Below, piece after piece: positions 1-20,455 of a stretch of 21,651 bases of DNA. The notes beneath the pieces are model-generated. The model was not told where the DNA came from, searched no databases, and was given only the letters and a program-made list of their open reading frames with translations. The position numbers and the translations under genes are program-made. Origin of the DNA: a virus (lineage: Duplodnaviria; Heunggongvirae; Uroviricota; Caudoviricetes); the IMG/VR virus record IMGVR_UViG_2896595138_000003; one strand, written 5' to 3'. Positions within the stretch are counted from its first letter, which is position 1, and each line of letters opens with the position of its first letter.

Positions 1-163
1 CACAACATCCGAGGACAGCATCGTCCGCCAGCCTACAGAAGTCCGGAAAGCCATGGAAGGTCGTTGGGAGGAGGTACGAATTCTATCATGCAAAAAATAC
101 GTAAAATCGATAACGCCTAGAAATCATTCAATACTCGCACTATCGAAAGTTTACCAGCCAACC

Positions 164-192
164 GCGGCACGTTCCTGCATACGACGTGCCGC
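164..192. other. Stem-loop (8-bp GC-rich stem GCGGCACG/CGTGCCGC, 13-nt loop) just downstream of the tail-fibre-assembly gene; possible weak terminator
   Basis: Inverted repeat read directly from sequence; only a modest T-rich stretch follows on the plus strand, none on the minus strand. Confidence 0.25.
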
Positions 193-200
193 AGCTTCTG

Positions 201-818
201 TTATTCCACGATAAAATTCCTAACCGAATTCAAATCCTTCAGACTATTCAGCTCTTCCTTCAGCTCCCGCTGACGGCGATAAATCTCGTCATTGCGCTCA
301 ACCTGTGCCTGAGCCATTGCTGCCGCCAGTTCTTCCAGTTCCGGCATCGACAGTTTCACCTGCTGATTATCGGCATCACCCCACGTCATCACGTCCCGTA
401 CAATGTCGGATTTCGCCGCCATTACCACCGGATAAAGGCGGCCCAGTGAGTTGGGGCCAGCATCCCAGATACGACCGTTCCATTCAAACGTGAACGGCTT
501 CGCCTCCTGTTCTGTGCGCCATGCTTCAATTCCCTGACGTCTGGCCTCTCTGGCCGCTTCCAGCATTTCTGGTGTCACAGTGAATGGGGCTATCTCACCC
601 CATTTGCCGCTTTGCAGTTCCTGCCAGATTTGCTGACCCGTCGGAGCGACATCATCAGCGGTGGCTGTGTAGGGGACTGCCTGGTCCCTGTCGTCAAAAA
701 AAACGTCACAGTCTACTGCGCCACTTTCGGTATAACGGGGATTAATGATTTTTTTAATTTCCACAGTGCATTCCTCACGATGTGCGAATAAAAAGCCCAA
801 GCATTGCGCCAGAGACAT
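201..818 (-). CDS. Putative tail-fibre assembly/chaperone protein (second copy), 205 aa
   Basis: ORF immediately downstream of and overlapping the second tail-fibre gene; acidic protein with C-terminal coiled-coil-like region; call is by position and composition, not by a recognised motif. Confidence 0.5.
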   Translation of the reverse strand: MSLAQCLGFLFAHREECTVEIKKIINPRYTESGAVDCDVFFDDRDQAVPYTATADDVAPTGQQIWQELQSGKWGEIAPFTVTPEMLEAAREARRQGIEAWRTEQEAKPFTFEWNGRIWDAGPNSLGRLYPVVMAAKSDIVRDVMTWGDADNQQVKLSMPELEELAAAMAQAQVERNDEIYRRQRELKEELNSLKDLNSVRNFIVE

Positions 819-2038
819 ATGTATCCGGCACCCCGGACAGGGCGCAATATGACCCCGGTAATGAATGCTCTGAACATCCCGTAATGAAATATTGTGGGTA
901 TACTATATGCGTTCCGGTGGGAGTACAGGGCGCTGAAATCCCCACCGGTCCCAGTCGTGAGCCTCTGTATGACCGCCCCCTGACAAGTCTGATGTCTTTA
1001 TCACCGTCAGCTTCTCCCTGGTACGCAGCAATAATCAGCCCGCCAATGTCAGGGTCTCCCCATCTGTTGCGGACAGAGCTCGCCACGATTCTGTAAATAA
1101 TATCTTCTGTGGTTATATTTATTTTCACCCAGTCAGTCAGAAATCCAGATAAGAGCCGGTAGCGGGCGTGATAAATGGGGCCGTTAATGCCGTAAAAAGT
1201 AAGGGATTTGGCTCTGCGCCACGGTTCTATTGTCTCAGGGCGTGCATCAGTCCACCGGATGCTGAGCCCCCTTCAAACCGTGTGTCGGGTATGATGATGC
1301 CGTAGGGGCCAGCAACGGAATATTCACCTGGCAGCGCATTCCTTACCCAGACCAGGAAATCATCCTCAGTGTCAAAACGGACAGTATCTTCATGCAGAAA
1401 AGCACGCCCAAAGCCGAATGCACCGGGTATCGCCAGACGGCCTTTTGTCCGGTCGTAAATGTCGCTCTGTGCTTCCATCGTGGCTGCACTTTTCAGCCCA
1501 GATTATCCCGGGACTTCTGTTGTGCCTTTTCGCCTGCTGCTGCGATTTCAGACAGATGGTTAGCCGTTTTCAGAGTGCCGGTCAGCGCAGCATCAATGTC
1601 ATTTTTGGCCTGTTCTGCTGCGCGGGCATAACCTGCGGCTGCCGCCACATCCTGCGCCGTCTGCTGTGCGTTTCCGGCTGCGGCCCCGGCGCTCTGCTGC
1701 GCCTGCGCCACCATTTCCTCAAAGCGTTTGACGACATCCGGTTTCAGGTCGCCCTCATCAGGAGCAATCAGAAAGTCATTCAGCGTGCCGGGCTTTGAGT
1801 CGTCGTATACAGCAATGTCGCCAACACAGTACTCGTTGCGCCAGTCCTGTTTCAGATACACACCATATTTTCCAGTCCGCGCATGGAAACAGTATTCACC
1901 ATCGTTTCCTGTCATCACATCAGCAACAGTGTGCATCACCACTTCCGGGGTGTTTACCCGGGATTTCAGAATAATCTGGTATCCGGACATGGGGATACCT
2001 GCGCCATCAGTCAGCGCACCTGATATCACTACAGACAT
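775..2038 (-). pseudogene. Phage tail-fibre protein, second copy, frame-disrupted (N-terminal 181-aa ORF 1493..2038, then fragments 1227..1478 and 775..1128)
   Basis: N-terminal ORF is Ala/Gln-rich like tail-fibre shafts; reading frame breaks near 1480-1495 and again downstream; followed by an assembly-chaperone gene. Confidence 0.45.
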
Positions 2039-2061
2039 AGTTTTTCTCGCGATAAATTAAA

Positions 2062-2607
2062 TCAGGAAGAACCTTCCGGAGAGACGGACCATTCAATGGC
2101 GTTGTATGAGGATTTATCAGTGATGGTGCTGAAATCCATCGCCTGCAGCGATTTCGCGTAAATACGACAGGCTTTCAGCTTTTCTTTATCTTCGTCGCTG
2201 ATTAACCCCAGCAGCAGGTCTTCTTCCCATTCCCCTGTCCGGGCACTGACCTGAGCCAGAAGGGCATCACGCTCATCTTCCGCTTTGAGTCTGTAGTCAA
2301 AGACAAATTCATCATTGCGGTAAAACCAGTAACCCGGCGCGGTAATGCGGCGGTTGGCGGTAATATCAGGAACTTCAATAACACTGGCGTTACGGGGTTC
2401 AATGCCTGTCACATCCTTACCGACCCACACCACGCGCCCGTCTCCGGTGTAAACCATTTTTATGGTGTCACTGGCGAAATTCTTCAGCTCTTCATACCAG
2501 TTTTTTCCGTCTTCTGAAAAAAGCCAGGTGACCGAATATCGTTTTGTCATCTGATATTGTTCTGCTGTTTTCGGATTACCCGCAGTAATATTTTTTAAAT
2601 GCAACAT
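2062..2607 (-). CDS. tfa: Tail-fibre assembly protein (Mu U / P2 G family), 181 aa
   Basis: N-terminus MLHLKNITAGNPKTAEQYQ...DGKNWYEE matches the conserved N-terminal motif of Mu U-type assembly proteins; lies directly downstream of the tail-fibre gene. Confidence 0.8.
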   Translation of the reverse strand: MLHLKNITAGNPKTAEQYQMTKRYSVTWLFSEDGKNWYEELKNFASDTIKMVYTGDGRVVWVGKDVTGIEPRNASVIEVPDITANRRITAPGYWFYRNDEFVFDYRLKAEDERDALLAQVSARTGEWEEDLLLGLISDEDKEKLKACRIYAKSLQAMDFSTITDKSSYNAIEWSVSPEGSS

Positions 2608-2660
2608 TGTTAAATACTCGCTACGTTATACCAGGTGCCATTAATCAGTTTTTGCAGTGG

Positions 2661-3812
2661 TCAGTAATACACACCGTCAACGTTATCCGCTGAGTTACGG
2701 CCGGTATCCGATATCGCCATCCCTGACAGCCCGTGTCCCGAAGGTGCGCAAAATCTCCACGAAACGGTGTTACTGCCGGGGCTGTAATACATTTCATGGC
2801 CATACCGTACATCCTGTACCCCCTCTGTTCGATATTTATAGCGGGCATCGAAGTTTCCGTAATTTAACGGAATTACCTGTCCGTTAACAGTGAACACTAT
2901 GCTATTATCCGGGTTTCTCTGGCTGAAAAAATGCCAGCCTGAATCATCAACAAGCTCTGCAACAACAGGCCTGGATGGATTACCCCACAAACAAAACGCT
3001 GCATTTTTCGTGGAGTTGTTGGCGCTGGATAACGTGAATTTTCTGGCAGTTCCGGCCTGAATATTCTTAAAAGCAATAGCCACGCCATTCTGAAAACGAA
3101 ATACATGCTGTCCATTAGCATAAACATCCAGCAGACCATCGCCATTTTGTTTAAACCCGGTATCGTTATCTCCTAAAACGATTGAACTTCCACCTAACGC
3201 ATTCGTCGTACCAATTCCAAGACAACCATTAATGACGGCATTAACCAGAATATTTAGTGTATCCCATTTGAGATTCATCAGGTCTTTAACCCGGCCGCCA
3301 GCGAGGCGGTGTCTCCATTTGAAATATTCATTACCGTTATCCGCCGTTTCAAACCACATGTAGGAATCGGTGTCTGCATCCGAATCATTTTTAAATCCAA
3401 TCTTCGCCCAGTCAGTATTCCGAATCCAGGCGAGGATTGAGTCGTTTTCAAAAGTAAGTCCACCGGACAAGGTATCGCCTTCCTGATGAACATAGCGTTG
3501 ATCTGACTGCTCTTTACTGTAAACCTGAAGATTATCCCGTGCCGTCCCTTTATTCTGAAGGTCTGACAGATTGTTCTTCTGCCGCAGGAATATCCTTTTC
3601 GGATCCTCAAGAAGATTTACCCAGCCCGCACTGTCGGAGCCTTCAGGATCGGTCAGGTTATCGTCTGTGGTATTCAGCCAGACCGCTGTTGTTGCGACTC
3701 CGGCGAGAATGGCTCCTTTTGCATATCCACCAATGGCCCCCGCAAAACCGGCATTATACGTGTACAAACCGCCAGCTTGGGCGAACCGTATTGCTGCGGT
3801 AATATCGTACAT
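2661..3812 (-). CDS. Phage tail-fibre protein (P2 gpH-like distal region), 383 aa
   Basis: Contains motifs typical of enterobacterial myovirus tail fibres ([50 protein letters not shown]); has its own ATG with an AAGGA ribosome-binding site; the frame stays open upstream to the IS110 boundary. Confidence 0.8.
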
Positions 3813-3844
3813 CAGACCGTTAAAATCCTTGCCGTGTGGCGGTA

Positions 3845-4073
3845 CCCCGTTACTTTATTCGTACCCTTATAATGGGGTGTTAGCCAGCCAGACCCGGCAT
3901 GATTACTGCCCCAGTCGTCCATGATCCGGGGGGGGATGTCACCGGGTCTGGTGGGGCGCTGGTAACCGCTAATAGGGGTCAGGTCAGGCACTTTTGCCGG
4001 GACCGTCTGTAACGTGGATGCCGGTACCTGCTCCCCGTGGTTATCTGGTTAACCCATATACAAGGGAGACAGA
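3845..4073 (+). ncRNA. Candidate IS110-type bridge (guide) RNA in the 5' non-coding leader
   Basis: Established knowledge that IS110-group elements encode a bridge RNA in the left-end leader; the leader here is 229 bp, GC-rich with self-complementary segments, and contains a TATAAT at 3868-3873; not verified by structure or model search. Confidence 0.35.
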
Positions 4074-5270
4074 ATGACCGAATCCAGCGATTACGAATCC
4101 GTCCAGGTCTTTATCGGCGTTGATGTCGGTAAAGATACGCATCACGCTGTTGCCATTAATCGTTCAGGTAAACGCCTGTTCGATAAAGCATTACCCAACG
4201 ACGAAAACAAACTCAGGTCGCTAATATCTGACCTGAAACAACATGGTCAGATACTGCTGGTTGTTGATCAGCCAGCTACCATCGGTGCGTTACCTGTCGC
4301 CGTTGCCCGCTCAGAAGGAGTCCTTGTCGGATACCTCCCTGGACTGGCCATGCGCCGCATAGCCGACTTACACGCCGGTGAAGCTAAAACTGATGCTCGT
4401 GACGCTGCCATCATTGCCGAAGCTGCCCGTACCCTGCCTCACGCGCTACGCACGCTGAAACTGGCTGACGAGCAAATCGCCGAACTCTCCATGCTCTGCG
4501 GCTTCGATGATGATCTTGCCGCACAGACAACGCAGGCCAGCAACCGTCTCCGCGGCCTTCTGACCCAGATACATCCGGCACTGGAGCGCGTTCTCGGTCC
4601 GAGACTTGAGTACCCGGCGGTACTCGATCTTCTCCAGCGATATCCCTCACCAGAAAAACTCGCTTCGCTGGGTGAGAAGAAGCTGGCAGCCCAGCTCTGC
4701 AAACTTGCGCCTCGTCTGGGTAAACGCCTTGCAGCAGACATAGCTCAGGCACTGGCCGAACAAACCGTCGTCGTTCCCGGCACGAATGCCGCTGCCGTAG
4801 TACTGCCACGTCTGGCACTCCAGCTCATCACGCTGCGTAAGCAAAGAGACGAGGTGGCGCTTGAGGTAGAACAGCGAGTTCTTGCTCACCCTCTTTACCC
4901 GGTCCTGACCAGTATGCCCGGAGTCGGTGTCAGGACCGCAGCCAGACTCCTCACCGAGGTCGCCTGCCGCGCCTTCGTCTCTGCCGCACATCTCGCTGCT
5001 TATGCTGGCCTTGCGCCGGTAACTCGGCGATCCGGCTCGTCAATACGCGGTGAGCATCCCTCGCGACGGGGTAATAAAGCTCTCAAACGGGCGTTGTTCC
5101 TGTCGGCCTTCGCCGCGCTCAGGGATCCGCTCTCCAGGGCTTACTACACCCGCAAAATGAGTCAGGGAAAACGACACAATCAGGCGCTTATCGCCCTGGC
5201 GAGACGACGCTGCGACGTTCTGTTCGCCATGATGCGCGACGGGACTTTTTATACCCCGCAGGGGTCATAA
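4074..5270 (+). CDS. IS110-family transposase/recombinase (DEDD RuvC-like N-terminus, IS116/IS110/IS902-type C-terminus), 398 aa
   Basis: N-terminal IGVDVGKDTHHAVAI motif and C-terminal MPGVGVRTAARLL helix-hairpin-helix region. Confidence 0.9.
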   Translation: MTESSDYESVQVFIGVDVGKDTHHAVAINRSGKRLFDKALPNDENKLRSLISDLKQHGQILLVVDQPATIGALPVAVARSEGVLVGYLPGLAMRRIADLHAGEAKTDARDAAIIAEAARTLPHALRTLKLADEQIAELSMLCGFDDDLAAQTTQASNRLRGLLTQIHPALERVLGPRLEYPAVLDLLQRYPSPEKLASLGEKKLAAQLCKLAPRLGKRLAADIAQALAEQTVVVPGTNAAAVVLPRLALQLITLRKQRDEVALEVEQRVLAHPLYPVLTSMPGVGVRTAARLLTEVACRAFVSAAHLAAYAGLAPVTRRSGSSIRGEHPSRRGNKALKRALFLSAFAALRDPLSRAYYTRKMSQGKRHNQALIALARRRCDVLFAMMRDGTFYTPQGS

Positions 5271-5442
5271 CATGCTTGACAACTTAATAGGGGCCCCCCG
5301 CTGAGACCGCTGTCATGGTCGTCGGAGGAAAACCTGAATCATACGCAGCATTACCGCTCTCTCTGGTCTACTGTGTCGCCTTGTCCGGGATACGGTTTTT
5401 ATCTCCGGTACTCGCAAAGGGGACCGCCAGCTGGCGGGTTTA

Positions 5443-6047
5443 TCACTGGCCTTCATTACGGGACTCCTTTAAAACTACTGAAACATAAACACCCGGCGGG
5501 GACGGCAGTGCACCCGACGACTGGATAATCGCCAGTTCTGCCGACGAGAGCGCGGACTCAAAGACGTAACTCATCCTCAGCCCGCCATTATTCAGAACAT
5601 AAGCCCGCCGTTTTTTTCCGAACATAAACCTCAGCATCCGGTTAATATCTGGAACGGAACAGTCAGTAATATTCGACATGGCTTTCATCAGGATCAGTCG
5701 CCGGTATATGGCATCAGTCAGGTCAACAGTCCGGGTAACCGATTTTCCGTTGTAAAACGGTGCCTGATTAAACGGGCGGGAATCATCCATTACCGGGGTG
5801 TCCATCCTAGACTCGCTGAAGCCCAGGTAATTAAAATCGTCCTTTACCGTCAGCCGGCGACTGACACCCACAATCTTTCCCCAGACATCAAGACCATACT
5901 TTTCTGCGGTATCGATGTTCCAGATAAGACCATAAAAATCACTGATAAAACTGTCGGGGAGAGCGCTGCGTTAAAGCTGTTAATGAGGGCATTGAGTCGG
6001 GAGCTGGCAGCATACTGCGCAAGCACAGTGGCAGCCACATTCTGCAC
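5443..6047 (-). pseudogene. Phage tail/baseplate protein at the gpI position, frame-disrupted (ORFs 5850..6047 and 5443..5871)
   Basis: Lies between the J-like gene and the tail fibre; two overlapping ORFs in different frames; no recognised motif. Confidence 0.35.
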
Positions 6048-6048
6048 G

Positions 6049-7284
6049 TTATGCCTCCTGGAGTTTCACACTGATATCCGACACATCCAGAACCGAAATC
6101 TCATCTATCCCGAAAGTGACAGCCGTTGTCCATGACGAACCGTCACGGCTCACAGTAAGGCCCAGAATATCAATATGTTCCGGATCGGTTTTGTAAATGC
6201 CGGCATAGTAGCGCCCGGCAGAGACAACAGAGGCAACTCTTGCCCGCAGACCACCATCTGTACCATTAAATGCGTCCAGCACGGATTGCTGTACCTGTCG
6301 GGTAATATCTGAAGGCAGGTAGTCACTTTTTTTCAGCGTCACACTGACATGCAGACTGACGGGTTTGAGTGTCTGCCAGCTGATCACGTATTCAGGATAC
6401 GGCGGATCGTACTCCTTATCTGCAACAGTGAACGTTGTGTTGCCATTCATATCAATACCCGGCGGAGCCTTACGCCAGATGGCCGCCGCGATATCTGCCG
6501 GGCTGCCGCCGTACACGCCAACATAAAGCGAACCGGGTGTTAATGGATACTGACTGACTCCGGCTTTTTGTTCTGTTTTTTTCGGATTATGGGTGACGTA
6601 AACATCCACCACGTTTTCTACCGTGGAGAGTATTTCACCCCGGATGGCTTCCAGAATATTCCGGGCATTACGGGCAACTGAATTACGTCGGCGGTTTTCA
6701 AAGTCCGCACGGGTTTCCTCATCGCTGCCCGGCACACCGGCACGGGCGTTAGTGACACCTGACCAGCCAGGTATTGCCTTATAAATTTTATTCAGCGTCC
6801 CCACAGGACAGCCGACGGGCCGGTGGACAAATTCAGAAATACCGCATCAACCTGCCCTGATGCGCCGATAGTGACGTCTGACTGACATACTTATAACCGG
6901 CCTCATCCTGCGCCATACTGCCCGCCGGGATCAGCGTGCCAACCAGCCCGGTACAGGTCGCTGTTACTGTCGTACCTGTGGCCCCACGGCGCTCCAGGAA
7001 ATAAATCCTGCCTATTGCATCCTGAAAGCGACCACTGGAAAAGTCAGGGTTGATCTGGTTAACGATATACAGCAACTGATCGTTTTTATCCGCAATAATG
7101 GCGCTTTCGCTGGATGCAAGTTGTCCCTGCGGACTGCTCAGACTGGTACTCATGGCCCGCCCAGCGCCGCCGAAAAATCAGCAAGCCTGCCGCTCAGAAT
7201 ATCCGCTTCATCCGGCACATTCAGCCCGCTATCCGAAATCTGTACAGCGGGCACTGCGGTAGAAAAAGATTTATTTTCACTCAT
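6049..7284 (-). pseudogene. Baseplate assembly protein J-like (Mu gp47 / P2 gpJ family), frame-disrupted in two places
   Basis: Three consecutive ORFs (7151..7284, 6833..7153, 6049..6804); the first ATG overlaps the stop of the upstream gene (ATGA), consistent with one ancestral gene of about 410 aa. Confidence 0.6.
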
Positions 7285-7636
7285 AGCAGTACCGTAAAAA
7301 TGTCATTATTGGTATCTGTAATACGCAGCACACCTGTTACTGTCCGGGTTTGATCAGCTGTGACCTGGCAGACAGCGGCGCTCACGGTCGGCAGTTTAAG
7401 TGCTTCCTGTTGCAGAGTGGCATTCACCAGTTGTGTGCCGGGCCAGTGTCCGAGGATGCGTGGCCAGTAAGGTATGCCAGCCGTTGAGTCGTACCAGCAC
7501 TCCCCAGAAAAGTACTGCACGCACACGCCACATCCTGAGCTACCGCATGGGGATTATCAGTAATGGCAAGATTTCCGGTATCATCAAGCAGGATATCCCA
7601 TGTCCCGGTGTCAAGAAGAAGTGATCGTGACTGCAT
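7281..7636 (-). pseudogene. Baseplate protein W-like (gp25/gpW-sized, about 118 aa), frame-disrupted
   Basis: Size and position between the V-like and J-like genes; two overlapping ORFs (7424..7636, 7281..7526). Confidence 0.35.
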
Positions 7637-7648
7637 GTTTTCTCCTGT

Positions 7649-8325
7649 TTACCGGGGTCCCTGCGTGGTTGAGCCGCCGGACTCAACGCCGCCGTGAACG
7701 TGGTTTCCAAAATCAATACCCCCGATGTTCGAACCGCCGGAAAGCCTGGACTGCCCGGTAACGTTAAGCCCCTTACTGACGGCGGTATCGCCGTTCAGCG
7801 CAATTTGTGGTGAGTTAACGGTGAAGCTTTTCGGCGCATTAATCACACCCTCAGGCGCAGATATCTCCACTTTCCAGGGAGATACAATCCGTATCTGGTT
7901 GTCATCAAATACCACAAACTGGACGGGATCACCGTTGAGCACACCACCCAGCCAGATGGCATCAGCATAATTATGGGTACGCTTTGATCCCGGCATCGCA
8001 GCCTGACGCGTGGCTTTTACCGCACTGATATCCCGATCGCAGATGGCAAGAAAACCGATATCCCCCACATGTGGCGGCATAATCACCGCATTACCGCCCC
8101 CTGTAGTCGCCATACGGGAATGTTATAAATCACCTCATGTTCAACCGGGGAACCGTCTGCTGCAACGCCCATTACCATCGGTCGGGCCTCAATAAATCCC
8201 TCTTCCACGGCTACCACCCGTCCCAGAGTGATAAACGCATGACGTCCGAGAAACTGCCGCAGCATAAAGTCCTGTGCATTGATTTCGCTGTTCACGTCTG
8301 TCGGGTTACTGAGTGGTTGTGCCAT
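7649..8325 (-). pseudogene. Baseplate assembly protein V (spike), frame-disrupted by a 1-bp change in a G-run near 8100-8106
   Basis: C-terminal Gly-rich HxH region (GGIDFGNHVHGGVESGGSTTQG) resembles P2 gpV; restoring one G in the run joins ORFs 8083..8325 and 7649..8113. Confidence 0.7.
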
Positions 8326-8424
8326 TTTCTTCAGCCCTCATCATGGTACAGTTGGAACTCCACGGACCGCCCACGGTTCGCGAAGTAATGGTGTGTATCA
8401 CCCCTATGATCGTATAATCGCCCG

Positions 8425-9173
8425 TCATATCAGGCAGTGACGATTCCAGATGCGCTGGCCTGCCAGTAAAGAGATCGGGCAGAATATCGTGGTGGCGCTG
8501 AGTCCGGTCATGGTGTAAACCGGATAGCCAGTCAGTCCGTGATCCGGCGAAATCAGTACCGGCGGAATATTCCGGTTCTGCCCTTTCGGCCAGATGGTGA
8601 CTTTCTCCACATTCCCCAGATCAATGTTAATATCGGCGGCTGAAGCGACATCCAGCATTTGTTGTACAACATTACCGGAAAAATGCGGGTCAGACAGACT
8701 GCGGCTGCCCCCTGGTTTTCAAATCCAAGCCCGACAGTTGACGCCAGCGCACGGATAATATCTGCAACCGCAACATCGCCCTTTGCGCTGAAACCTGCCG
8801 CCGGCTGATTACGCAGATTAAAATGAATCTGTCCTGTCAGAATGAGCGGAATATCCGGCGCCTGGTTGTAGTCGGCGTATGCATCAGTAATATCACCTTC
8901 AAAAATAAGCCGCCCGTCGGCCCACAGCCGCATTTTATTTGCGGTACTCTGCTCCTGTCGCCACACACCGCGCCAGCTTAAATTCGTCATATGCGCCGGT
9001 GACATTCCCCAGATATACAGCGTGATTTGTGTACCAGCCACCCCTCCATATCCGGCAATACTGGCAAAACAGCTTGCGTCGGTAATGGTCAGCATATTGC
9101 CCTGGCCATTACCAAACGTTCGTCCGTCTGAAAGAGTGAACTCCACCGTTATTTTACGTTGTCTGTAGCTCAT
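8425..9173 (-). pseudogene. Phage tail/baseplate protein upstream of gpV (hub-like?), frame-disrupted
   Basis: Real N-terminus with a GAGGAA ribosome-binding site before the ATG at 9173; frame lost after about 155 codons and continued by ORF 8425..8658; family not recognised. The 216 bp between 9174 and the IS66 end holds the 3' tail of a further tail gene cut by IS66. Confidence 0.35.
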
Positions 9174-9389
9174 ATCAGTTCCTCAGGTAACAGCCAGTAG
9201 AGCCGGTATCGGGATCCGAGCCCCGCCAGTCAGGGTCACTATTCCCCTCCGTGTCGGTAAAAAACAGGTCCCCTGAAACGGCAGGTATCCGTACCGGACA
9301 ATCCGGTTATTATTCAGACACAGCACGCCATACAGGCACGGTTCACCATTAACAATGATATCGATATACATCCCGTAGTACGCTGATTC

Positions 9390-10439
9390 GTAAGCGCCCG
9401 AGAAGTACGTAGCGTAAGGATTATTTTACAGACGAGAAGTTCCAGGGCAGCAGTTCATGCACTTGGTTCGACGGCCAGTCATTGAGCTTCTCGATCACTT
9501 CGCGCAACCAGTCCTCCGGCTCCACTTCGTTCTGTTTGCAGGTGACCAGCAGACTGTAGATGATCGCCGCACTTTCTCCTCCCTTGTCTGAGCCGAAAAA
9601 GAGATAATTTTTTCTTCCAACCGCCACCGATCGTAACGCGTTTTCACCGATGTTGTTGTCTATTTCCACCCAGCCGTCACGACAGAACTCGTTCAGCGCA
9701 TTCCAGTGATTCAGGATATAGTCGAACGCCTTCGCCATCTCCGCATGTTTCGACAGCGTTTTCCTCTGCAACTGTATCCAGTCGTACAACGACTGCATCA
9801 ACTGGACGCTTCTGGCTTTTCTGACTGCAAGCCGTTCCTCTGCCGGACTGCCACGTATCTCCGCTTCTATGTCGTATAACTCTGCTATCCGTCTGAGCGC
9901 TTCCTGAGTCATTTCTGTCGGACGGCGCACATCCTCGTCATGGATTTTTCGGCGGGCGTGGGCCAGGCACCCGGCTTCCTTCACCCGGCCCGTTTCGTAC
10001 AGTACGTTATAACCTGCATAGGCATCAGCCTGCAGTACGCCCTGATACTTTGCCAGGTGGAGCTGCGGATGTTCTCCTTTGCGATCTGCCGAATACGCGA
10101 ACCAGACGGCTGCCGGCAGGGATGAACCCGCATTACGATCATCCCTGACGTATACCCACAGACGACCCGTTTTCGTCTTTCCGTTCCCCGGGCCAGTACT
10201 TTCACCGGAGTGTCATCTGCGTGCACCTTTCCTGCCTCCAGAACATAGTCATTCAGCGCTATATACAGAGGACGGAGTTTGTCTGCCATTTCTGATACCC
10301 AGCGCACCATGGTATTACGGCTCAGCTCCACGCCCTGTCGCGCGTATATTTCTGACTGGCGATATAAAGGGATATGTTCCATATATTTGCTGACCAGGAT
10401 CCGTGCAAGTAACCCTGCACTGGCATAACCGCGTTCGAT
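9390..10439 (-). mobile_element. IS66-family element, right-end fragment (terminal GTAAGCG-type repeat plus 3' part of tnpC), cut by IS600 copy A
   Basis: Terminal sequence GTAAGCGCCCGAGAAGTACGTAGCGTAAG at 9391-9419 adjoins the tnpC stop; IS66-family ends characteristically begin GTAAGCG. Confidence 0.7.
9421..10439 (-). pseudogene. IS66-family transposase TnpC, 5'-truncated by IS600 and frameshifted (GGG to GG near 10180)
   Basis: Contains [10 protein letters not shown] and LPWN-type TnpC motifs; frames of ORFs 9421..9984 and 9981..10577 join if one G is restored. Confidence 0.8.
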
Positions 10440-10482
10440 TGAGGTGTACTGGCAATAGCGGACACTACCATTTGTTCTTTTT

Positions 10483-11300
10483 TTAAGCAGCCATCTGATG
10501 ATATTTTTCCCTGAAGGCTGCCGGGGAGATATTCCCCAGACGAGAGTGACGACGCTGACGATTGTAGAAAATCTCAATGTATTCCCGTATTACTGAGATG
10601 GCTTCATCCCGGTTATTAAAACGATAGTGGCTCAGGCTCTCATTTTTCAGCGTTCCCCAGAAGCTTTCCATCGGAGCGTTGTCGTAACAGTTACCTTTAC
10701 ACGACATTGATGTTTTCAGACCAAACTGCTCCTGTATGACCGGTAATCGTATGCGCAGTACTGTGAACCTCGATCAGAGTGGTGGATTAGCCCGGCAGGT
10801 GGGCGCTGGCTCCTGAGCGCCATAAACAGGGCTTTACCTGTCAGCTCTTTTGTCATGCGCTCTCCCATGGCGTAGCCGACAATTTCGCACGTATAAACAT
10901 CTTTGATGCCAGCGAGGTACAACCATCCCTCCTGTGTGGCAACATACGTCAGGTCCGCCACCCAGACCTGATTTGGTGCTGTAGGAGCGAACGTCTGGTT
11001 CAGCAGATTTGGCGCAACTGGCAGATTGTGGTTCGGGTTCGTAGTCGCTCTGAACTTGCGTTTCTGCTTACAGCGTAGCCTTAGCTCCTTACGAAGACGT
11101 GCCAGTCGGTCACGACCAACGATGATGCCATTCTCTGCCAGCTCCGTCTGGAGCCGCCGGGTTCCATATGTTTCGCGAGTGCGGATATGTGCCACCTTAA
11201 TCTCCAGTTTTAGCCGCTCATCACTTTGTTTTCTGTCTGAGGGTTCATGCTGTACCCGGTTGTAATAACCGCTCCTGGATACACCAAATACCTGACACAT
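10483..11300 (-). pseudogene. IS600 OrfB transposase, frameshifted (1-bp deletion CCC to CC near 10740)
   Basis: Direct comparison with intact copies B and C: TGACCCGG there versus TGACCGG here. Confidence 0.8.
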
Positions 11301-11335
11301 CGCTTCAATGGGAAATTGTTGTCGCCATTGTTCGA

Positions 11336-11638
11336 TTAACGCGTATTTTTCAGCGACTCCTGTGCAAAATACGCTGTTGCTTTTTTTAATATATCTCGCT
11401 CAAGGCGAGCTTCATTTAACGCCTTACGCAGTTGCAGAATTTCAGATTCCAGTTCAGCCACCGTGCGGGAACCAGGAGTACCGAGCCCTTTTCTGGCGGC
11501 GGTAACCCATTGTCCTAAAGTGCCTTCAGGAAGGGATAATCGGGAAGCGCCTTCACTGATCGAAAGTTGATTTTCAAGAACCGTTCTGACAGCTTCGGCT
11601 TTGAACTCTTTAGAGTAACGTTGGGTTTTTCTGCTCAT
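11336..11638 (-). CDS. IS600 OrfA (IS3-family helix-turn-helix protein), 100 aa
   Basis: MSRKTQRYSKEFKAEAVRTV...; identical in copies A and C, one substitution in copy B. Confidence 0.85.
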   Translation of the reverse strand: MSRKTQRYSKEFKAEAVRTVLENQLSISEGASRLSLPEGTLGQWVTAARKGLGTPGSRTVAELESEILQLRKALNEARLERDILKKATAYFAQESLKNTR

Positions 11639-11858
11639 TATTAGCTCCTTCTGATGCCATTCTATTTCAGGAAGGAGTGTCCGTTAAACTCAGGCTACCT
11701 CAGGTCTTCCGACGATTCTGTCATTGTTCATTAAGCAAAAGTTTCCATGCTGTTTGTGCTTATTCTAAGCAACCGGGCAGCATCATACGGGGCAATTATG
11801 GCCGCATTACCATACATGCAACTGTACATAGCTGATTACCTGGCTGACACTGAAGTGG

Positions 11859-12453
<595 letters not shown>

Positions 12454-12479
12454 AGGATAATGCGCTCTGAGTTTCCCGA

Positions 12480-12782
<303 letters not shown>

Positions 12783-12855
12783 TGGAGCACCTGTGTTGTT
12801 CTGAGGTGAGCATATCACCTCTGTTCAGGTGGCCAAATTCAGTGTGCCACTTCAT

Positions 12856-12898: not shown

Positions 12899-13336
12899 AT
12901 GTCGCCATCATTACGCAAGGCTGTTGCAGTTGCTATTGGTGGCGGGGCTGTAGCTATAGCATCTGTGTTAATCACTGGCCCAGGTAGTAACGATGGTCTG
13001 GAAGGTGTCAGCTACATACCATACAAAGATATCATTGGTGTATGGACTGTATGTCACGGACACACCGGAAAAGACATCATGCCTGGTAAAACGTATACCG
13101 AAGCAGAATACAAAGCTCTCCTGAATAAAGACCTTGCCACTGTCGCCAGACAAATTAACCCGTACATCAAAGTCGATATACCGGAAACAACGCGCGGCGC
13201 TCTTTACTCGTTCGTTTACAACGTGGGCGCTGGCAATTTCAGAACATCGACGCTTCTTCGCAAAATAAACCAGGGCGATATCAAAGGCGCATGTGACCAG
13301 CTACGTCGCTGGACATATGCTGGCGGTAAGCAATAG
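12899..13336 (+). CDS. R: SAR endolysin / phage lysozyme R (GH24) ending at a premature TAG; the ancestral frame continues 19 codons to the TGA overlapping the Rz start
   Basis: N-terminal signal-anchor-release segment ([20 protein letters not shown]); the codon after the TAG reads [19 protein letters not shown] in frame, consistent with a W-to-amber change. Confidence 0.85.
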
Positions 13337-13392
13337 AAAGGGCTGATGACCCGTCGTGAGATTGAGCGTGAAGTCTGTTTGTGGGGGCAGCA

Positions 13393-13890
13393 ATGAGCAG
13401 AGTCACCGCGATTATCTCCGCTCTGGTTATCTGCATCATCGTCTGCCTGTCATGGGCTGTTAATCATTACCGTGATAACACCATTACCTACAAAGAGCAG
13501 CGCGACAAAAACGCAAGAGAACTGAAGCTGGCGAACGCAACCATTACTGACATGCAGCAGCGCCAGCGTGCTGCTGATGCCCTCGATGCTAAATACACGA
13601 AGGAGTTAGCCAATGCGAAAGCTGAAAATGATGCTCTTCGGCGCAAGCTTGATAATGGTGGTCGGGTGCTCGTCAAAGGAAAATGCCCTGTGCCATCCTC
13701 AGCCGAAACCTCCAGCGCCTCCGGCATGGGCAATGATGCCACCGTCGAACTCTCTCCAGTTGCTGGACGAAACGTTCTCGGTATCCGGGACGGAATCATC
13801 AGCGACCAGACAGCATTGAGAATGCTTCAGGAGTACATCAGGATCCAATGCCTTGGGGGTGCCCCTATTAAGTTGTCAAGCATGTTATGA
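13393..13890 (+). CDS. Rz: Rz inner-membrane spanin; last 8 codons and the stop are supplied by the IS110 copy 2 end
   Basis: [29 protein letters not shown]...; ATGA overlap with the endolysin frame; ORF track start 13381 is an upstream alternative start. Confidence 0.8.
13613..13819 (+). CDS. Rz1: Rz1 outer-membrane lipoprotein spanin, embedded in the +1 frame of Rz, 68 aa
   Basis: Lipobox (LIMVVGC) followed by a Pro-rich segment ([16 protein letters not shown]), fully inside Rz. Confidence 0.8.
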
Positions 13891-15081
13891 CCCCTGCGGG
13901 GTATAAAAAGTCCCGTCGCGCATCATGGCGAACAGAACGTCGCAGCGTCGTCTCGCCAGGGCGATAAGCGCCTGATTGTGTCGTTTTCCCTGACTCATTT
14001 TGCGGGTGTAGTAAGCCCTGGAGAGCGGATCCCTGAGCGCGGCGAAGGCCGACAGGAACAACGCCCGTTTGAGAGCTTTATTACCCCGTCGCGAGGGATG
14101 CTCACCGCGTATTGACGAGCCGGATCGCCGAGTTACCGGCGCAAGGCCAGCATAAGCAGCGAGATGTGCGGCAGAGACGAAGGCGCGGCAGGCGACCTCG
14201 GTGAGGAGTCTGGCTGCGGTCCTGACACCGACTCCGGGCATACTGGTCAGGACCGGGTAAAGAGGGTGAGCAAGAACTCGCTGTTCTACCTCAAGCGCCA
14301 CCTCGTCTCTTTGCTTACGCAGCGTGATGAGCTGGAGTGCCAGACGTGGCAGTACTACGGCAGCGGCATTCGTGCCGGGAACGACGACGGTTTGTTCGGC
14401 CAGTGCCTGAGCTATGTCTGCTGCAAGGCGTTTACCCAGACGAGGCGCAAGTTTGCAGAGCTGGGCTGCCAGCTTCTTCTCACCCAGCGAAGCGAGTTTT
14501 TCTGGTGAGGGATATCGCTGGAGAAGATCGAGTACCGCCGGGTACTCAAGTCTCGGACCGAGAACGCGCTCCAGTGCCGGATGTATCTGGGTCAGAAGGC
14601 CGCGGATACGGTTGCTGGCCTGCGTTGTCTGTGCGGCAAGATCATCATCGAAGCCGCAGAGCATGGAGAGTTCGGCGATTTGCTCGTCAGCCAGTTTCAG
14701 CGTGCGTAGCGCGTGAGGCAGGGTACGGGCAGCTTCGGCAATGATGGCAGCGTCACGAGCATCAGTTTTAGCTTCACCGGCGTGTAAGTCGGCTATGCGG
14801 CGCATGGCCAGTCCAGGGAGGTATCCGACAAGGACTCCTTCTGAGCGGGCAACGGCGACAGGTAACGCACCGATGGTAGCTGGCTGATCAACAACCAGCA
14901 GTATCTGACCATGTTGTTTCAGGTCAGATATTAGCGACCTGAGTTTGTTTTCGTCGTTGGGTAATGCTTTATCGAACAGGCGTTTACCTGAACGATTAAT
15001 GGCAACAGCGTGATGCGTATCTTTACCGACATCAACGCCGATAAAGACCTAGACGGATTCGTAATCGCTGGATTCGGTCAT
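13885..15081 (-). pseudogene. IS110-family transposase, copy 2, with a TAG at codon 11 (CAG in copy 1)
   Basis: Direct comparison: GTCCAGGTC in copy 1 versus GTCTAGGTC in copy 2 (15049-15051 on the plus strand); otherwise one L-to-I substitution. Confidence 0.8.
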
Positions 15082-15311
15082 TCTGTCTCCCTTGTATATG
15101 GGTTAACCAGATAACCACGGGGAGCAGGTACCGGCATCCACGTTACAGACGGTCCCGGCAAAAGTGCCTGACCTGACCCCTATTAGCGGTTACCAGCGCC
15201 CCACCAGACCCGGTGACATCCCCCCCGGATCATGGACGACTGGGGGCAGTAATCATGCCGGGTCTGGCTGGCTAACACCCCATTATAAGGGGTACGAATA
15301 AAGTAACGGGG
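15082..15311 (-). ncRNA. Candidate IS110-type bridge (guide) RNA leader, copy 2
   Basis: Same leader as 3845-4073 but differs at three homopolymer runs (C4 vs C3, C5 vs C4, C7 vs C8). Confidence 0.3.
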
Positions 15312-16145: not shown

Positions 16146-16209
16146 TGAGGTAGCCTGAGTTTAACGGACACTCCTTCCTGAAATAGAATGGCATCAGAAG
16201 GAGCTAATA

Positions 16210-16512
16210 ATGAGCAGAAAAACCCAACGTTACTCTAAAGAGTTCAAAGCCGAAGCTGTCAGAACGGTTCCTGAAAATCAACTTTCGATCAGTGAAGGCG
16301 CTTCCCGATTATCCCTTCCTGAAGGCACTTTAGGACAATGGGTTACCGCCGCCAGAAAAGGGCTCGGTACTCCTGGTTCCCGCACGGTGGCTGAACTGGA
16401 ATCTGAAATTCTGCAACTGCGTAAGGCGTTAAATGAAGCTCGCCTTGAGCGAGATATATTAAAAAAAGCAACAGCGTATTTTGCACAGGAGTCGCTGAAA
16501 AATACGCGTTAA
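16210..16512 (+). CDS. IS600 OrfA, 100 aa
   Basis: One substitution relative to copies A and C (TVPENQ versus TVLENQ). Confidence 0.9.
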   Translation: MSRKTQRYSKEFKAEAVRTVPENQLSISEGASRLSLPEGTLGQWVTAARKGLGTPGSRTVAELESEILQLRKALNEARLERDILKKATAYFAQESLKNTR

Positions 16513-16547
16513 TCGAACAATGGCGACAACAATTTCCCATTGAAGCG

Positions 16548-17366
16548 ATGTGTCAGGTATTTGGTGTATCCAGGAGCGGTTATTACAACTGGGTACAGCA
16601 TGAACCCTCAGACAGAAAACAAAGTGATGAGCGGCTAAAACTGGAGATTAAGGTGGCACATATCCGCACTCGCGAAACATATGGAACCCGGCGGCTCCAG
16701 ACGGAGCTGGCAGAGAATGGCATCATCGTTGGTCGTGACCGACTGGCACGTCTTCGTAAGGAGCTAAGGCTACGCTGTAAGCAGAAACGCAAGTTCAGAG
16801 CGACTACGAACCCGAACCACAATCTGCCAGTTGCGCCAAATCTGCTGAACCAGACGTTCGCTCCTACAGCACCAAATCAGGTCTGGGTGGCGGACCTGAC
16901 GTATGTTGCCACACAGGAGGGATGGTTGTACCTCGCTGGCATCAAAGATGTTTATACGTGCGAAATTGTCGGCTACGCCATGGGAGCGCGCATGACAAAA
17001 GAGCTGACAGGTAAAGCCCTGTTTATGGCGCTCAGGAGCCAGCGCCCACCTGCCGGGCTAATCCACCACTCTGATCGAGGTTCACAGTACTGCGCATACG
17101 ATTACCGGGTCATACAGGAGCAGTTTGGTCTGAAAACATCAATGTCGCGTAAAGGTAACTGTTACGACAACGCTCCGATGGAAAGCTTCTGGGGAACGCT
17201 GAAAAATGAGAGCCTGAGCCACTATCGTTTTAATAACCGGGATGAAGCCATCTCAGTAATACGGGAATACATTGAGATTTTCTACAATCGTCAGCGTCGT
17301 CACTCTCGTCTGGGGAATATCTCCCCGGCAGCCTTCAGGGAAAAATATCATCAGATGGCTGCTTAA
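16548..17366 (+). CDS. IS600 OrfB transposase (DDE), 272 aa
   Basis: Intact ORF; IS3-family DDE transposase, normally expressed as an OrfAB fusion by -1 frameshifting. Confidence 0.9.
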   Translation: MCQVFGVSRSGYYNWVQHEPSDRKQSDERLKLEIKVAHIRTRETYGTRRLQTELAENGIIVGRDRLARLRKELRLRCKQKRKFRATTNPNHNLPVAPNLLNQTFAPTAPNQVWVADLTYVATQEGWLYLAGIKDVYTCEIVGYAMGARMTKELTGKALFMALRSQRPPAGLIHHSDRGSQYCAYDYRVIQEQFGLKTSMSRKGNCYDNAPMESFWGTLKNESLSHYRFNNRDEAISVIREYIEIFYNRQRRHSRLGNISPAAFREKYHQMAA

Positions 17367-17545
17367 AAAAAGAACAAATGGTAGTGTCCGCTATTGCCAG
17401 TACACCTCAGTGGTGAAATAAAACCGGGCACAACACGAAGGCGCATTTCCGGTATCCATAAAGAGTCGGTCTTGTCTGTTAAATTTAAATGGTGGGAGTG
17501 CGCCTCCGGTTGTAAATAACGACATTGCTGTGTGAAGTACCAGTT

Positions 17546-17752: not shown

Positions 17753-18397
17753 ATGTTGAATGTAGCTATTGAAAACCAGAACGGGTGGAATTATAGTGCA
17801 CCTGCACCTCATAAAACGGGTGCCGGGATTGCTACCCCGAAGTCATTCACGGCGCATAACCGCGCTCAGGCGGTTTTTTTATACGTAATGCACAGCCACA
17901 TTCAAATTATGGTGGGGCGTGCGGGGCAGTCGCAAGACTGGCCGGGTTCCGTGATGACCGGTTGTAGCAACCCTGTACGTCTCACCACCCATGAGATTGC
18001 TACCTCCGGTGGTGAGTTAATCAAATTCATCGCGGAGGCTGCCATCATGGCTACTACCCTTTCTCACCCTTGTGTAACCGTAGAAAACGGTCGCGCTGTC
18101 ACTACGTCTGTTGCGGTTGCAGAGTTCTTCCACAAACGACACGACAATGTGTTACGTGCCATCGCAAATATTGAATGCTCAGATAAATTTACTGCCCTCA
18201 ATTTTGAGGCGAGCGAATACACCGACTCAACCGGGCGCAAACTCCCAATGTACCAAATCACCAAAAACGGCTTCGTTTTCCTGGTTATGGGATTCACTGG
18301 CAAAAAAGCCGCTGCATTCAAAGAAGCCTACATTGCTGAGTTCGACCGCATGGAGGCCGAACTGCGCCAGAATAACCCCCACCTGCTGACAAGATGA
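17753..18397 (+). CDS. Rha-family phage regulatory protein (pRha domain in the C-terminal half); alternative start at ATG 18047 with a GGAGG site would give a 116-aa Rha-only protein
   Basis: Motif KRHDNVLRAIANI...GRKLPMYQITKNGFVFLVMGFTGKKAAAFKEAYIAEFDRME is typical of the pRha domain; the N-terminal 98 codons have no recognised similarity. Confidence 0.7.
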   Translation: MLNVAIENQNGWNYSAPAPHKTGAGIATPKSFTAHNRAQAVFLYVMHSHIQIMVGRAGQSQDWPGSVMTGCSNPVRLTTHEIATSGGELIKFIAEAAIMATTLSHPCVTVENGRAVTTSVAVAEFFHKRHDNVLRAIANIECSDKFTALNFEASEYTDSTGRKLPMYQITKNGFVFLVMGFTGKKAAAFKEAYIAEFDRMEAELRQNNPHLLTR

Positions 18398-19067: not shown

Positions 19068-19194
19068 CATGATTACCAGTTATGAAGCCACTGTTGTAAC
19101 TACTGATGACATTGTTCACGAGGTTAATCTGGAAGGAAAGCGTATTGGCTACGTGATTAAGACAGAAAATAAAGAAACCCCATTCACTGTGTGA
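19068..19194 (+). CDS. Small ORF (41 aa) whose stop codon is formed by the first bases of IS600 copy C; probably 3'-truncated
   Basis: AAGGAGAAAAAC then ATG; the TGA at 19192-19194 is the IS600 terminus TGAGG. Confidence 0.3.
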
Positions 19195-19234
19195 GGTGTA
19201 CTGGCAATAGCGGACACTACCATTTGTTCTTTTT

Positions 19235-20053
19235 TTAAGCAGCCATCTGATGATATTTTTCCCTGAAGGCTGCCGGGGAGATATTCCCCAGACGAGAGTG
19301 ACGACGCTGACGATTGTAGAAAATCTCAATGTATTCCCGTATTACTGAGATGGCTTCATCCCGGTTATTAAAACGATAGTGGCTCAGGCTCTCATTTTTC
19401 AGCGTTCCCCAGAAGCTTTCCATCGGAGCGTTGTCGTAACAGTTACCTTTACGCGACATTGATGTTTTCAGACCAAACTGCTCCTGTATGACCCGGTAAT
19501 CGTATGCGCAGTACTGTGAACCTCGATCAGAGTGGTGGATTAGCCCGGCAGGTGGGCGCTGGCTCCTGAGCGCCATAAACAGGGCTTTACCTGTCAGCTC
19601 TTTTGTCATGCGCTCTCCCATGGCGTAGCCGACAATTTCGCACGTATAAACATCTTTGATGCCAGCGAGGTACAACCATCCCTCCTGTGTGGCAACATAC
19701 GTCAGGTCCGCCACCCAGACCTGATTTGGTGCTGTAGGAGCGAACGTCTGGTTCAGCAGATTTGGCGCAACTGGCAGATTGTGGTTCGGGTTCGTAGTCG
19801 CTCTGAACTTGCGTTTCTGCTTACAGCGTAGCCTTAGCTCCTTACGAAGACGTGCCAGTCGGTCACGACCAACGATGATGCCATTCTCTGCCAGCTCCGT
19901 CTGGAGCCGCCGGGTTCCATATGTTTCGCGAGTGCGGATATGTGCCACCTTAATCTCCAGTTTTAGCCGCTCATCACTTTGTTTTCTGTCTGAGGGTTCA
20001 TGCTGTACCCAGTTGTAATAACCGCTCCTGGATACACCAAATACCTGACACAT
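19235..20053 (-). CDS. IS600 OrfB transposase, 272 aa
   Basis: Intact; differs from copy B at one residue (AMGERMTKE versus AMGARMTKE). Confidence 0.9.
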   Translation of the reverse strand: MCQVFGVSRSGYYNWVQHEPSDRKQSDERLKLEIKVAHIRTRETYGTRRLQTELAENGIIVGRDRLARLRKELRLRCKQKRKFRATTNPNHNLPVAPNLLNQTFAPTAPNQVWVADLTYVATQEGWLYLAGIKDVYTCEIVGYAMGERMTKELTGKALFMALRSQRPPAGLIHHSDRGSQYCAYDYRVIQEQFGLKTSMSRKGNCYDNAPMESFWGTLKNESLSHYRFNNRDEAISVIREYIEIFYNRQRRHSRLGNISPAAFREKYHQMAA

Positions 20054-20088
20054 CGCTTCAATGGGAAATTGTTGTCGCCATTGTTCGA

Positions 20089-20391
20089 TTAACGCGTATT
20101 TTTCAGCGACTCCTGTGCAAAATACGCTGTTGCTTTTTTTAATATATCTCGCTCAAGGCGAGCTTCATTTAACGCCTTACGCAGTTGCAGAATTTCAGAT
20201 TCCAGTTCAGCCACCGTGCGGGAACCAGGAGTACCGAGCCCTTTTCTGGCGGCGGTAACCCATTGTCCTAAAGTGCCTTCAGGAAGGGATAATCGGGAAG
20301 CGCCTTCACTGATCGAAAGTTGATTTTCAAGAACCGTTCTGACAGCTTCGGCTTTGAACTCTTTAGAGTAACGTTGGGTTTTTCTGCTCAT
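20089..20391 (-). CDS. IS600 OrfA, 100 aa
   Basis: Identical to copy A OrfA. Confidence 0.9.
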   Translation of the reverse strand: MSRKTQRYSKEFKAEAVRTVLENQLSISEGASRLSLPEGTLGQWVTAARKGLGTPGSRTVAELESEILQLRKALNEARLERDILKKATAYFAQESLKNTR

Positions 20392-20455
20392 TATTAGCTC
20401 CTTCTGATGCCATTCTATTTCAGGAAGGAGTGTCCGTTAAACTCAGGCTACCTCA

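Follow-up and report, generated by a model that had tools for sequence, protein, structure and literature searches.

We analyzed a window of 21,651 nt (the whole stretch of DNA under study; IMG/VR record IMGVR_UViG_2896595138_000003, a virus of the Caudoviricetes) in which two tail-fibre genes, each followed by an assembly-chaperone gene, lie in tandem beside an insertion sequence (IS) of the IS110 family. Our reading, held with high confidence, is that positions 201-6047 make up the distal end, used for host recognition, of a degraded prophage of myovirus type, located at the Rac/uspF site of an IS-rich Escherichia/Shigella-like genome. This confidence extends to the account as a whole: a native cassette of four genes, a first fibre gene (fibre 1) broken by the IS and by nonsense mutations, and a second one (fibre 2) whose disrupted frame would be an artefact. 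The finding is an ordinary one, as it adds one more, dead copy of a known dual-fibre cassette. At the same time, an open reading frame (ORF) that looks intact proves to be an internal fragment, and a gene that looks broken is probably intact: IS junctions and the homopolymer errors of long-read assemblies can invert a reading made from the sequence alone.

The 383-aa ORF of fibre 1 was found on exactly one complete chromosome, GCA_002950375.1 (CP026845.1), which agrees with the window without a difference in this region and carries sitDCBA, uspF, ompN and nifJ on the window's left side. The nearest relatives in our E. coli collection are pINV-carrying strains of the enteroinvasive type. Comparisons below involve mainly two prophages of enteroinvasive E. 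coli (EIEC), from strains RMDEC332 (L001) and RMDEC465 (L010), a sister genome (CP026877.1) and an independent short-read contig (L005, from DRR015919). The two EIEC prophages are orthologous to the region at 95-99% nucleotide identity, including the DUF2612 and baseplate genes, and L001 has sitABCD and uspF placed as in the source of the window. They differ from it by an uninterrupted fibre 1 (410 aa in L001, 466 aa in L010) and an intact fibre 2 (422 and 470 aa, respectively); L010 differs further by an IS4 in its Tfa gene and by an ipaH3 cargo in place of sit.

A tandem cassette shared with complete phages

According to the ORF list and to Pfam and PHROG matches, four co-directional genes on the minus strand succeed one another in the order fibre 1, Tfa, fibre 2 and DUF4376 protein, which bears out the two tandem pairs of like orientation described in an earlier note on this sequence. 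Upstream of the cassette lie baseplate J and a DUF2612 baseplate-wedge gene (5443-6047, minus strand; PF11041, 1.5e-40; orthologue of 201 aa in L001), and downstream of it sitDCBA and then uspF. Fibre 1 is found in two parts on the minus strand, a 5' fragment with codons 1-54 (5294-5456, ATG at 5456) and a distal part with approximately codons 55-466 (2610-3848; its ORF at 2661-3812 matches phrog_454, 4e-74), both delimited by alignment with L001 and L010, at the DNA and protein levels for the distal part and after removal of the IS for the 5' fragment. Fibre 2 (775-2038, minus strand) has its own, lambda Stf-type N-terminal domain (PF08400, 9e-70, residues 1-132) and matches phrog_2636 at both of its ends. 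The two fibre/chaperone pairs are separated by a 23-nt spacer and no IS lies between them.

The genome of the Stx2e phage phiP27 (NC_003356) ends with these four genes, identically ordered and with no invertase: fibre L54, Tfa L55, fibre L56 and L57 are followed by attR. The order also recurs, likewise without an invertase, in vB_Apl-pPE4 (gp67-gp70, then the integrase) and in Rac-SA53 (tail1-tail4, then attB and uspF, which is the chromosomal site of the window's prophage). Like these cassettes, that of the window keeps to a single strand and stands at the prophage end, after the wedge genes. Likeness to phiP27 includes orientation, and nucleotide identity reaches 84-88% over the second chaperone, the ends of fibre 2 and the first chaperone, with a shared C-terminal motif in fibre 1; phiP27 differs by its Mu-like baseplate, another fibre 1 N-terminus (332 aa), the lack of sit cargo and uninterrupted genes. 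In Rac-SA53 and pPE4 the cassette stands behind baseplate J and a wedge gene of about 200 aa, as it does here, but fibre 1 has other N-terminal domains, fibre 2 is longer (667 and 1061 aa), and neither an IS nor a sit operon is present. Among 5426 complete E. coli genomes, 103 matched a 551-nt probe across the Tfa-to-fibre-2 boundary with at least 80% coverage, and phiP27, pPE4 and Rac-SA53 contain the sequence as well.

Because the same order is present in these three genomes and in the 103 E. coli genomes, the tandem layout is no oddity, contrary to the earlier note, which had thought it unusual by comparison with Mu and P1. On this evidence we regard the tandem cassette as native and as already known in public phage genomes. 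Its fibre 1 N-termini vary with the type of baseplate, and its distal parts and chaperones are common to the different cassettes, as is usual for fibre genes with their mosaic pattern.

We also considered that the two pairs might come from two prophages, one a myovirus that contributed fibre 1 and Tfa, the other a lambdoid phage that contributed stf, its chaperone and sitABCD, joined by an IS-mediated deletion so that their order would be accidental. The lambda Stf N-terminal domain of fibre 2 and the abundance of IS elements in the window are compatible with such an origin, as is the description of sitABCD as a common moron of lambda-like coliphages (PMC6969025). However, phiP27, pPE4 and Rac-SA53 have the identical order and all lack a sit operon, and the junction, with its 23 nt free of any IS, is widespread among E. 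coli prophages. The cassette may well go back to an ancient recombination, which, however, is older than this genome. We consider an accidental joining of this kind extremely improbable, and a fusion of two prophages was rejected on the ground that the Tfa-to-fibre-2 junction is kept in complete phages.

Each fibre gene of the native cassette is followed by a chaperone gene. Tfa (2062-2607, minus strand, 181 aa), the tail-fibre assembly protein that serves fibre 1, is intact, and its designation as an intact Mu U-like chaperone holds: it matches PF02413 (Caudo_TAP; 4e-25) with 88.8 bits against a cut-off of 22.1, over profile positions 2-131 of 131, and phrog_136 at 1e-58. The family is that of lambda Tfa, Mu U and P2 G. 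The gene begins 2 nt past the native stop of fibre 1, and the protein shares 177 of its 181 residues with the orthologue in L001 and 159 of 181 with pPE4 gp68.

The gene after fibre 2 (201-818, minus strand) had also been taken for a chaperone, and it does belong to a family of fibre chaperones; the family, though, is DUF4376 and not that of Mu U and Tfa (PF02413). The DUF4376 domain (PF14301, 2e-15) is C-terminal, at residues 88-192, and scores 57.6 bits against a cut-off of 25; the protein also matches phrog_1141 (6e-88). Its true start is probably the GTG at 764, which would give a protein of 187 aa, rather than the ATG at 818: the orthologues P27 L57, Rac-SA53 tail4 and pPE4 gp70 start at window residue V19, and the GTG lies 11 nt past the fibre 2 stop, with a GAGGAA ribosome-binding site overlapping that stop. 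A search of PDB sequences with this protein gave no meaningful match (best E = 0.15).

Experiments have shown distant members of the family to be needed for fibre function in two other systems, gp27 in Alteromonas phage V22 (PMC7289586) and the product of the DUF4376 gene downstream of the H-fibre in Campylobacter CJIE1 prophages (PMC7882524). A relationship between DUF4376 and the C-terminus of TfaMu, a conserved part of that protein, has also been described (PMC7289586, PMC10579305, PMC7882524). In the myovirus V22, as in the cassette, a DUF2612 baseplate gene is followed by several fibre genes (short, central and gp26), and the DUF4376 gene gp27 lies directly downstream of the fibre that requires it (PMC10579305, PMC7289586). 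V22 differs in having other fibres, its sequence shows no close relationship that could be detected, and reports on it mention no Caudo_TAP chaperone. Going by family and position, the DUF4376 protein is a putative chaperone of fibre 2. Both chaperones of the window match phrog_11571, over different parts, which fits a modular relationship between the two.

Comparison with invertible fibre loci

Pairs of a fibre and a Tfa-type chaperone are also found in Mu (S/U and S'/U', with gin), P1 (cin) and the e14 element, whose layout is stfP-tfaP, inverted tfaE-stfE, then pinE. In a further likeness, these loci provide two receptor specificities from one place. Their two sets, however, stand in opposite orientation, share a constant N-terminal part, are accompanied by inverted repeats and are switched by an adjacent serine invertase; the window has none of these features. 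A tblastn search with PinE, which covered the window, the 7.3 kb on its left side and five related loci, detected no invertase and recovered the K-12 e14 positive control, so that the absence of an invertase claimed by the earlier note now also covers the leftward flank in which the note had advised looking. No resolvase domain is present among window ORFs of at least 90 aa. The only inverted repeats of gix or cix type in 1-3848 are two 16-nt pairs with 88% complementarity, which corresponds to chance level.

One reading, built on the earlier note, takes fibre 1 to be intact and only separated from its operon by the IS, and the co-directional double set to be either an unusual, invertase-free alternative to host-range switches of the Mu/P1 kind or what is left of such a switch. 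The absence of an invertase in or beside the window agrees with this, as does, for fibre 1, an open ORF of 383 aa whose ATG lies 36 bp from the IS. Against it, gix-like inverted repeats are lacking, the tandem order is native in complete phages and in about 100 E. coli genomes, and fibre 2, having an N-terminal domain of its own, is no alternative C-terminal cassette. The ORF, moreover, corresponds to residues 67-449 of a 466-aa product whose 5' end lies beyond the IS and whose last 17 residues are missing. We thus give this reading very little credence. Since each fibre has its own N-terminal anchor, the two would be separate fibres rather than Mu-style alternatives, and the cassette appears to encode two complete fibres, not one fibre with switchable tips.

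In its native state the module belongs to the late tail operon and has the order baseplate J, DUF2612 wedge, fibre 1, Tfa, fibre 2 and DUF4376 chaperone, followed by cargo (here sitABCD) and the attachment site. Fibre 1 combines a conserved N-terminal anchor with a distal half resembling P2 gpH, and fibre 2 a lambda Stf-type N-terminal domain with a distal half of its own. With an attachment domain and an assembly factor for each, two separate fibres would be made together in intact relatives, and we infer their co-expression there. We may go further and suggest, tentatively, that in intact cassettes such as those of phiP27 and Rac-SA53-like phages both fibres are carried by the same contractile-tail virion, with the lambda Stf-type N-terminal domain of fibre 2 docking on the baseplate or on fibre 1 or its retained Tfa, so as to form a branched fibre. 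Such a cassette could be a non-switching counterpart of the Mu and P1 loci that confers constitutive dual receptor specificity, and it could move between unrelated baseplates through exchange of the fibre 1 N-terminus alone. We consider this possible, though doubtful on balance. Our literature search on the P27 fibres found no functional study of L54 or L56, and the dead cassette of the window contributes only one more copy to this reading.

Fibre 1 and its ISEc20-like insertion

Fibre 1 departs from the 466-aa gene of L010, its closest allele, by four lesions: an IS in codons 53-55, the nonsense mutations Q30* and R450*, and a 1-nt deletion. Once the IS is excised, the two genes align end to end, and the 383-aa ORF (2661-3812) is found to correspond to residues 67-449. 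Its ATG at 3812 is an internal Met67, so the ORF lacks 66 N-terminal residues. In the uninterrupted orthologues (466 and 410 aa) the start codon lies 66 codons farther upstream; they do not share this ATG, although the earlier note had named a shared ATG, together with a tandem locus in intact phages, as what would overturn its reading. Only the second of these was observed, the locus being tandem in complete phage genomes. The longer ancestral N-terminus that the note had left open is thereby confirmed, and its view of fibre 1 as an intact gene falls.

Colinearity with L001 locates the interruption. Window positions 3084-3848 correspond to L001 14921-15685, and 5294-9389 to L001 15684-19794; the break at 3848/5294 falls about 54 codons into the 410-aa product annotated in L001 as 'phage tail fiber protein', whose gene has 14 nt in common with that of DUF2612. 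Accordingly, the IS110 element does adjoin the ORF as had been noted, but at a distance of 36 bp and not 33, and it lies inside the gene rather than upstream of it. The statement that it separates fibre 1 from what lies upstream is confirmed, codons 1-54 and the DUF2612 gene lying beyond the IS.

The part thus severed includes a conserved domain. The N-terminal 130 residues of fibre 1 form such a domain, with which the fibres of at least 59 sequenced phages, from Aeromonas, Klebsiella, Pseudomonas, Pantoea and others, align from residues 1-7 with 40-52% identity, and the window ORF starts at position 64-67 of the PHROG profile. The distal half is about 81% nucleotide-identical to P2 gene H. 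At this end R450* (CGA>TGA) creates a premature TGA at 2661-2663, after which 16 native codons (2613-2660) remain untranslated before the native stop, TAA at 2610-2612. The mutation costs the protein its last 17 conserved residues: the lost C-terminus, RPLQKLINGTWYNVASI, is kept in L001, L010 and pPE4 gp67 and has slightly diverged in P27 L54. Within the 5' fragment, Q30* results from CAG>TAG, and the 1-nt deletion, at 5436 in a C-run of codons 7-8, causes a -1 frameshift.

Two independent sources reproduce both the IS junction and the TGA at R450. The short-read contig L005 is identical to the window over 1697-3866, a segment that spans the junction, and CP026877.1 shares both the IS and the 383-aa ORF with the window. 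In a scan of positions 1-4100 for promoters and terminators, promoter-like sites were fewer than in shuffled sequences and no outward promoter was found at the IS end, so that the scan does not support the idea that the 383-aa ORF is expressed on its own. No unbroken frame leads from the N-terminal anchor to the conserved C-terminus. Because the gene is split by an IS and cut by stops, with the junction and the TGA seen in both L005 and CP026877.1, we classify fibre 1 as a pseudogene from its sequence.

The inserted element (plus strand) extends from 3849 to 5293 as delimited by alignment with uninterrupted relatives, with an uncertainty of +/-2 bp since the junctions fall in a C-run. Its transposase (4074-5270) contains PF01548 (5.6e-49) and PF02371 (9.4e-22), that is, the DEDD transposase of the IS110 family, and over its full length the element shows 99.6-99.7% identity with copies that carry the annotation 'IS110-like element ISEc20 family transposase'. 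A repeat of at most 2 nt (CC) occurs at the junctions, which leaves no long target duplication. A second ISEc20-like copy is present at 13862-15307 on the minus strand; it is 99.6% identical to the first and has its transposase ORF shortened to 306 aa.

The choice of target is sequence-specific. We inspected seven ISEc20 copies: two in the window, four from chromosomes of E. coli or from pINV plasmids, and one in the sister genome at the site of the window's first copy. All seven sit in C-runs and conform to CCCC|IS|C(A/C)CCCCC; the two target sites in the window are 3841-3848/5294-5299 and 13855-13861/15308-15315. In fibre 1 the target is a G8 run (C8 on the plus strand) in codons 53-55, which encode Ala-Gly-Gly. 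The position of the IS within fibre 1 can therefore be attributed to the preference of ISEc20 for C-runs, on which our literature search for this element returned nothing. By inserting into the G8 tract, the element parted the 5' end, which codes for the anchor, from the remainder of the gene; Q30* and R450* cut the gene further, and other IS elements truncate the upstream tail module of the prophage. Disruption of prophage genes by IS elements is commonplace in genomes of the Shigella type. In the present case the G8 tract codes for two conserved glycines (Gly-Gly) in the anchor of the fibre, and it exemplifies how the gene that is struck in a prophage can be determined by the targets an IS110 element prefers rather than by selection.

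The non-coding stretch at the 5' end of the element (225 nt, 3849-4073), of which L006:151-377 is a clean copy, suggests how this preference may arise. Inspection of its RNA fold places C5 and G8 segments on opposite sides of one stem, and the RNA also contains AAUAGGGG, equal to the right IS end, as well as GUAACG, to which the left end of the IS is complementary. On the model of the IS621 system, these segments are those that an IS110 recombinase guided by a bridge RNA would require, and the RNA looks like such a bridge RNA, with guides that would fit a poly-C/G target and the ends of the IS. Rfam gave no family match in this region; its only matches, C4 and isrK, are far from the locus.

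Fibre 2 and homopolymer deletions

In the window, fibre 2 is read in three frames, and the earlier note was right to call it frame-disrupted. The disruption, though, comes down to two 1-nt deletions in homopolymers seen in this assembly only, and is probably an artefact. Relative to L001, the gene shows substitutions, an in-frame 3-nt deletion at 1141 and two 1-nt deletions, at about 1267 and 1497, both in C/G runs. Restoring the two single bases yields an unbroken frame with no internal stop and the same end as the 422-aa orthologue. The sister genome CP026877.1, which differs from the window by 9 substitutions in 8.6 kb, has an intact fibre 2 of 421 aa, and the 83-aa middle fragment of the gene is present in no assembly other than the window's source.

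Deletions of the same type pervade the neighborhood. The 5294-9389 segment, otherwise 98.9% identical to L001, has eleven 1-nt deletions, all in G/C runs, and the left flank has six further 1-nt homopolymer deletions, five of them in G/C runs, several of which break sit genes. Overall, 1-nt differences from relatives lie almost entirely in homopolymers and are overwhelmingly deletions in the source of the window. They break sitA, sitB, sitC, baseplate J, the DUF2612 gene (at 5956; this gene normally overlaps the start of fibre 1 by 14 nt) and other genes. The gene calls of the source assembly accordingly show sitA, sitB and sitC as fragments, whereas sitB, sitC and sitD are full-length in CP026877.1, where sitA is called at 271 aa versus 296 aa in other relatives. 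One deletion of the window, at 3864, is contradicted by the short-read contig. It is this homopolymer error pattern, together with the intact gene in the sister genome, that leads us to regard the fibre 2 disruption as a probable assembly artefact.

The two frameshifts, at 1267 and 1497, might instead be real, strain-specific mutations, in which case fibre 2 would be a genuine pseudogene. Shigella-type genomes rich in IS elements often contain pseudogenes, and both fibre 1 and baseplate J bear lesions outside homopolymers, nonsense mutations in the former and a 4-nt deletion at 6878 in the latter. Yet both fibre 2 lesions are 1-nt deletions in C-runs, of the very type that breaks sitA, sitB, sitC and nearly every tail gene here; the contradicted deletion at 3864, the intact gene in so close a genome and the confinement of the 83-aa fragment to one assembly count in the same direction. 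Real mutations are thus the less likely option, although by no means a negligible one.

Several points weigh against the overall account of a native cassette with a broken fibre 1 and an artefactual break in fibre 2. Q30* and the -1 frameshift of the fibre 1 5' fragment are seen in this assembly only. The uninterrupted orthologues with this fibre 1 N-terminus are EIEC prophages, not proven viable phages, and the complete phages with the tandem order (phiP27, pPE4 and Rac-SA53) have different fibre 1 N-termini. For fibre 2, the artefact is deduced from the error pattern and the sister genome and not from reads, and two homopolymer differences from CP026877.1 are insertions in the window's source, so that either assembly may err. 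We see the earlier observation as partly confirmed and its interpretation as partly supported.

The wider error pattern is apparent in CP026845.1 over the window and the 7.3 kb to its left, where more than 20 single-base homopolymer deletions, nearly all in G/C runs, distinguish it from close relatives. Many apparent pseudogenes in this region may be assembly errors. The 4-nt deletion at 6878 in baseplate J, the loss of one copy of a CTGA CTGA tandem, is unlike the homopolymer indels and looks like a genuine frameshift.

Other elements of the window

The sitABCD operon constitutes a prophage cargo between the fibre cassette and uspF, to the left of the window (L004 13813-18265). In the sister prophage of RMDEC465 the equivalent place is occupied by ipaH3 (L010 1076-2791).

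Beside the two ISEc20-like copies, the window contains an IS3-family element of 1264 bp that occurs three times, one further IS3-type element and a fragment of an IS66. The 1264-bp copies (10440-11702, 16146-17409 and 19192-20455) are more than 99.6% identical to one another, and two of them form an inverted pair that flanks an antirepressor region. The IS66 fragment (9421-10577) and the IS3-type element (11859-12818) truncate the tail module; as the IS66 fragment cuts the upstream module at about 9390, no virion is possible from the content of the window.

Lysozyme and Rz lysis genes (12899-13890) adjoin the second ISEc20-like copy. Rfam identifies isrK (64.8 bits) and the C4 antisense RNA (79 bits) where an ORF with antirepressor domains of the Ash and Rha types has its 5' end (17804-17992 and 17753-18397). 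This area is a control region like immunity I of P1 and P7, within prophage debris. At the far end of the window, a tyrosine integrase ORF of 414 aa with Phage_integrase and Arm-DNA-bind_2 domains (20407-21651, plus strand) extends to the final base.

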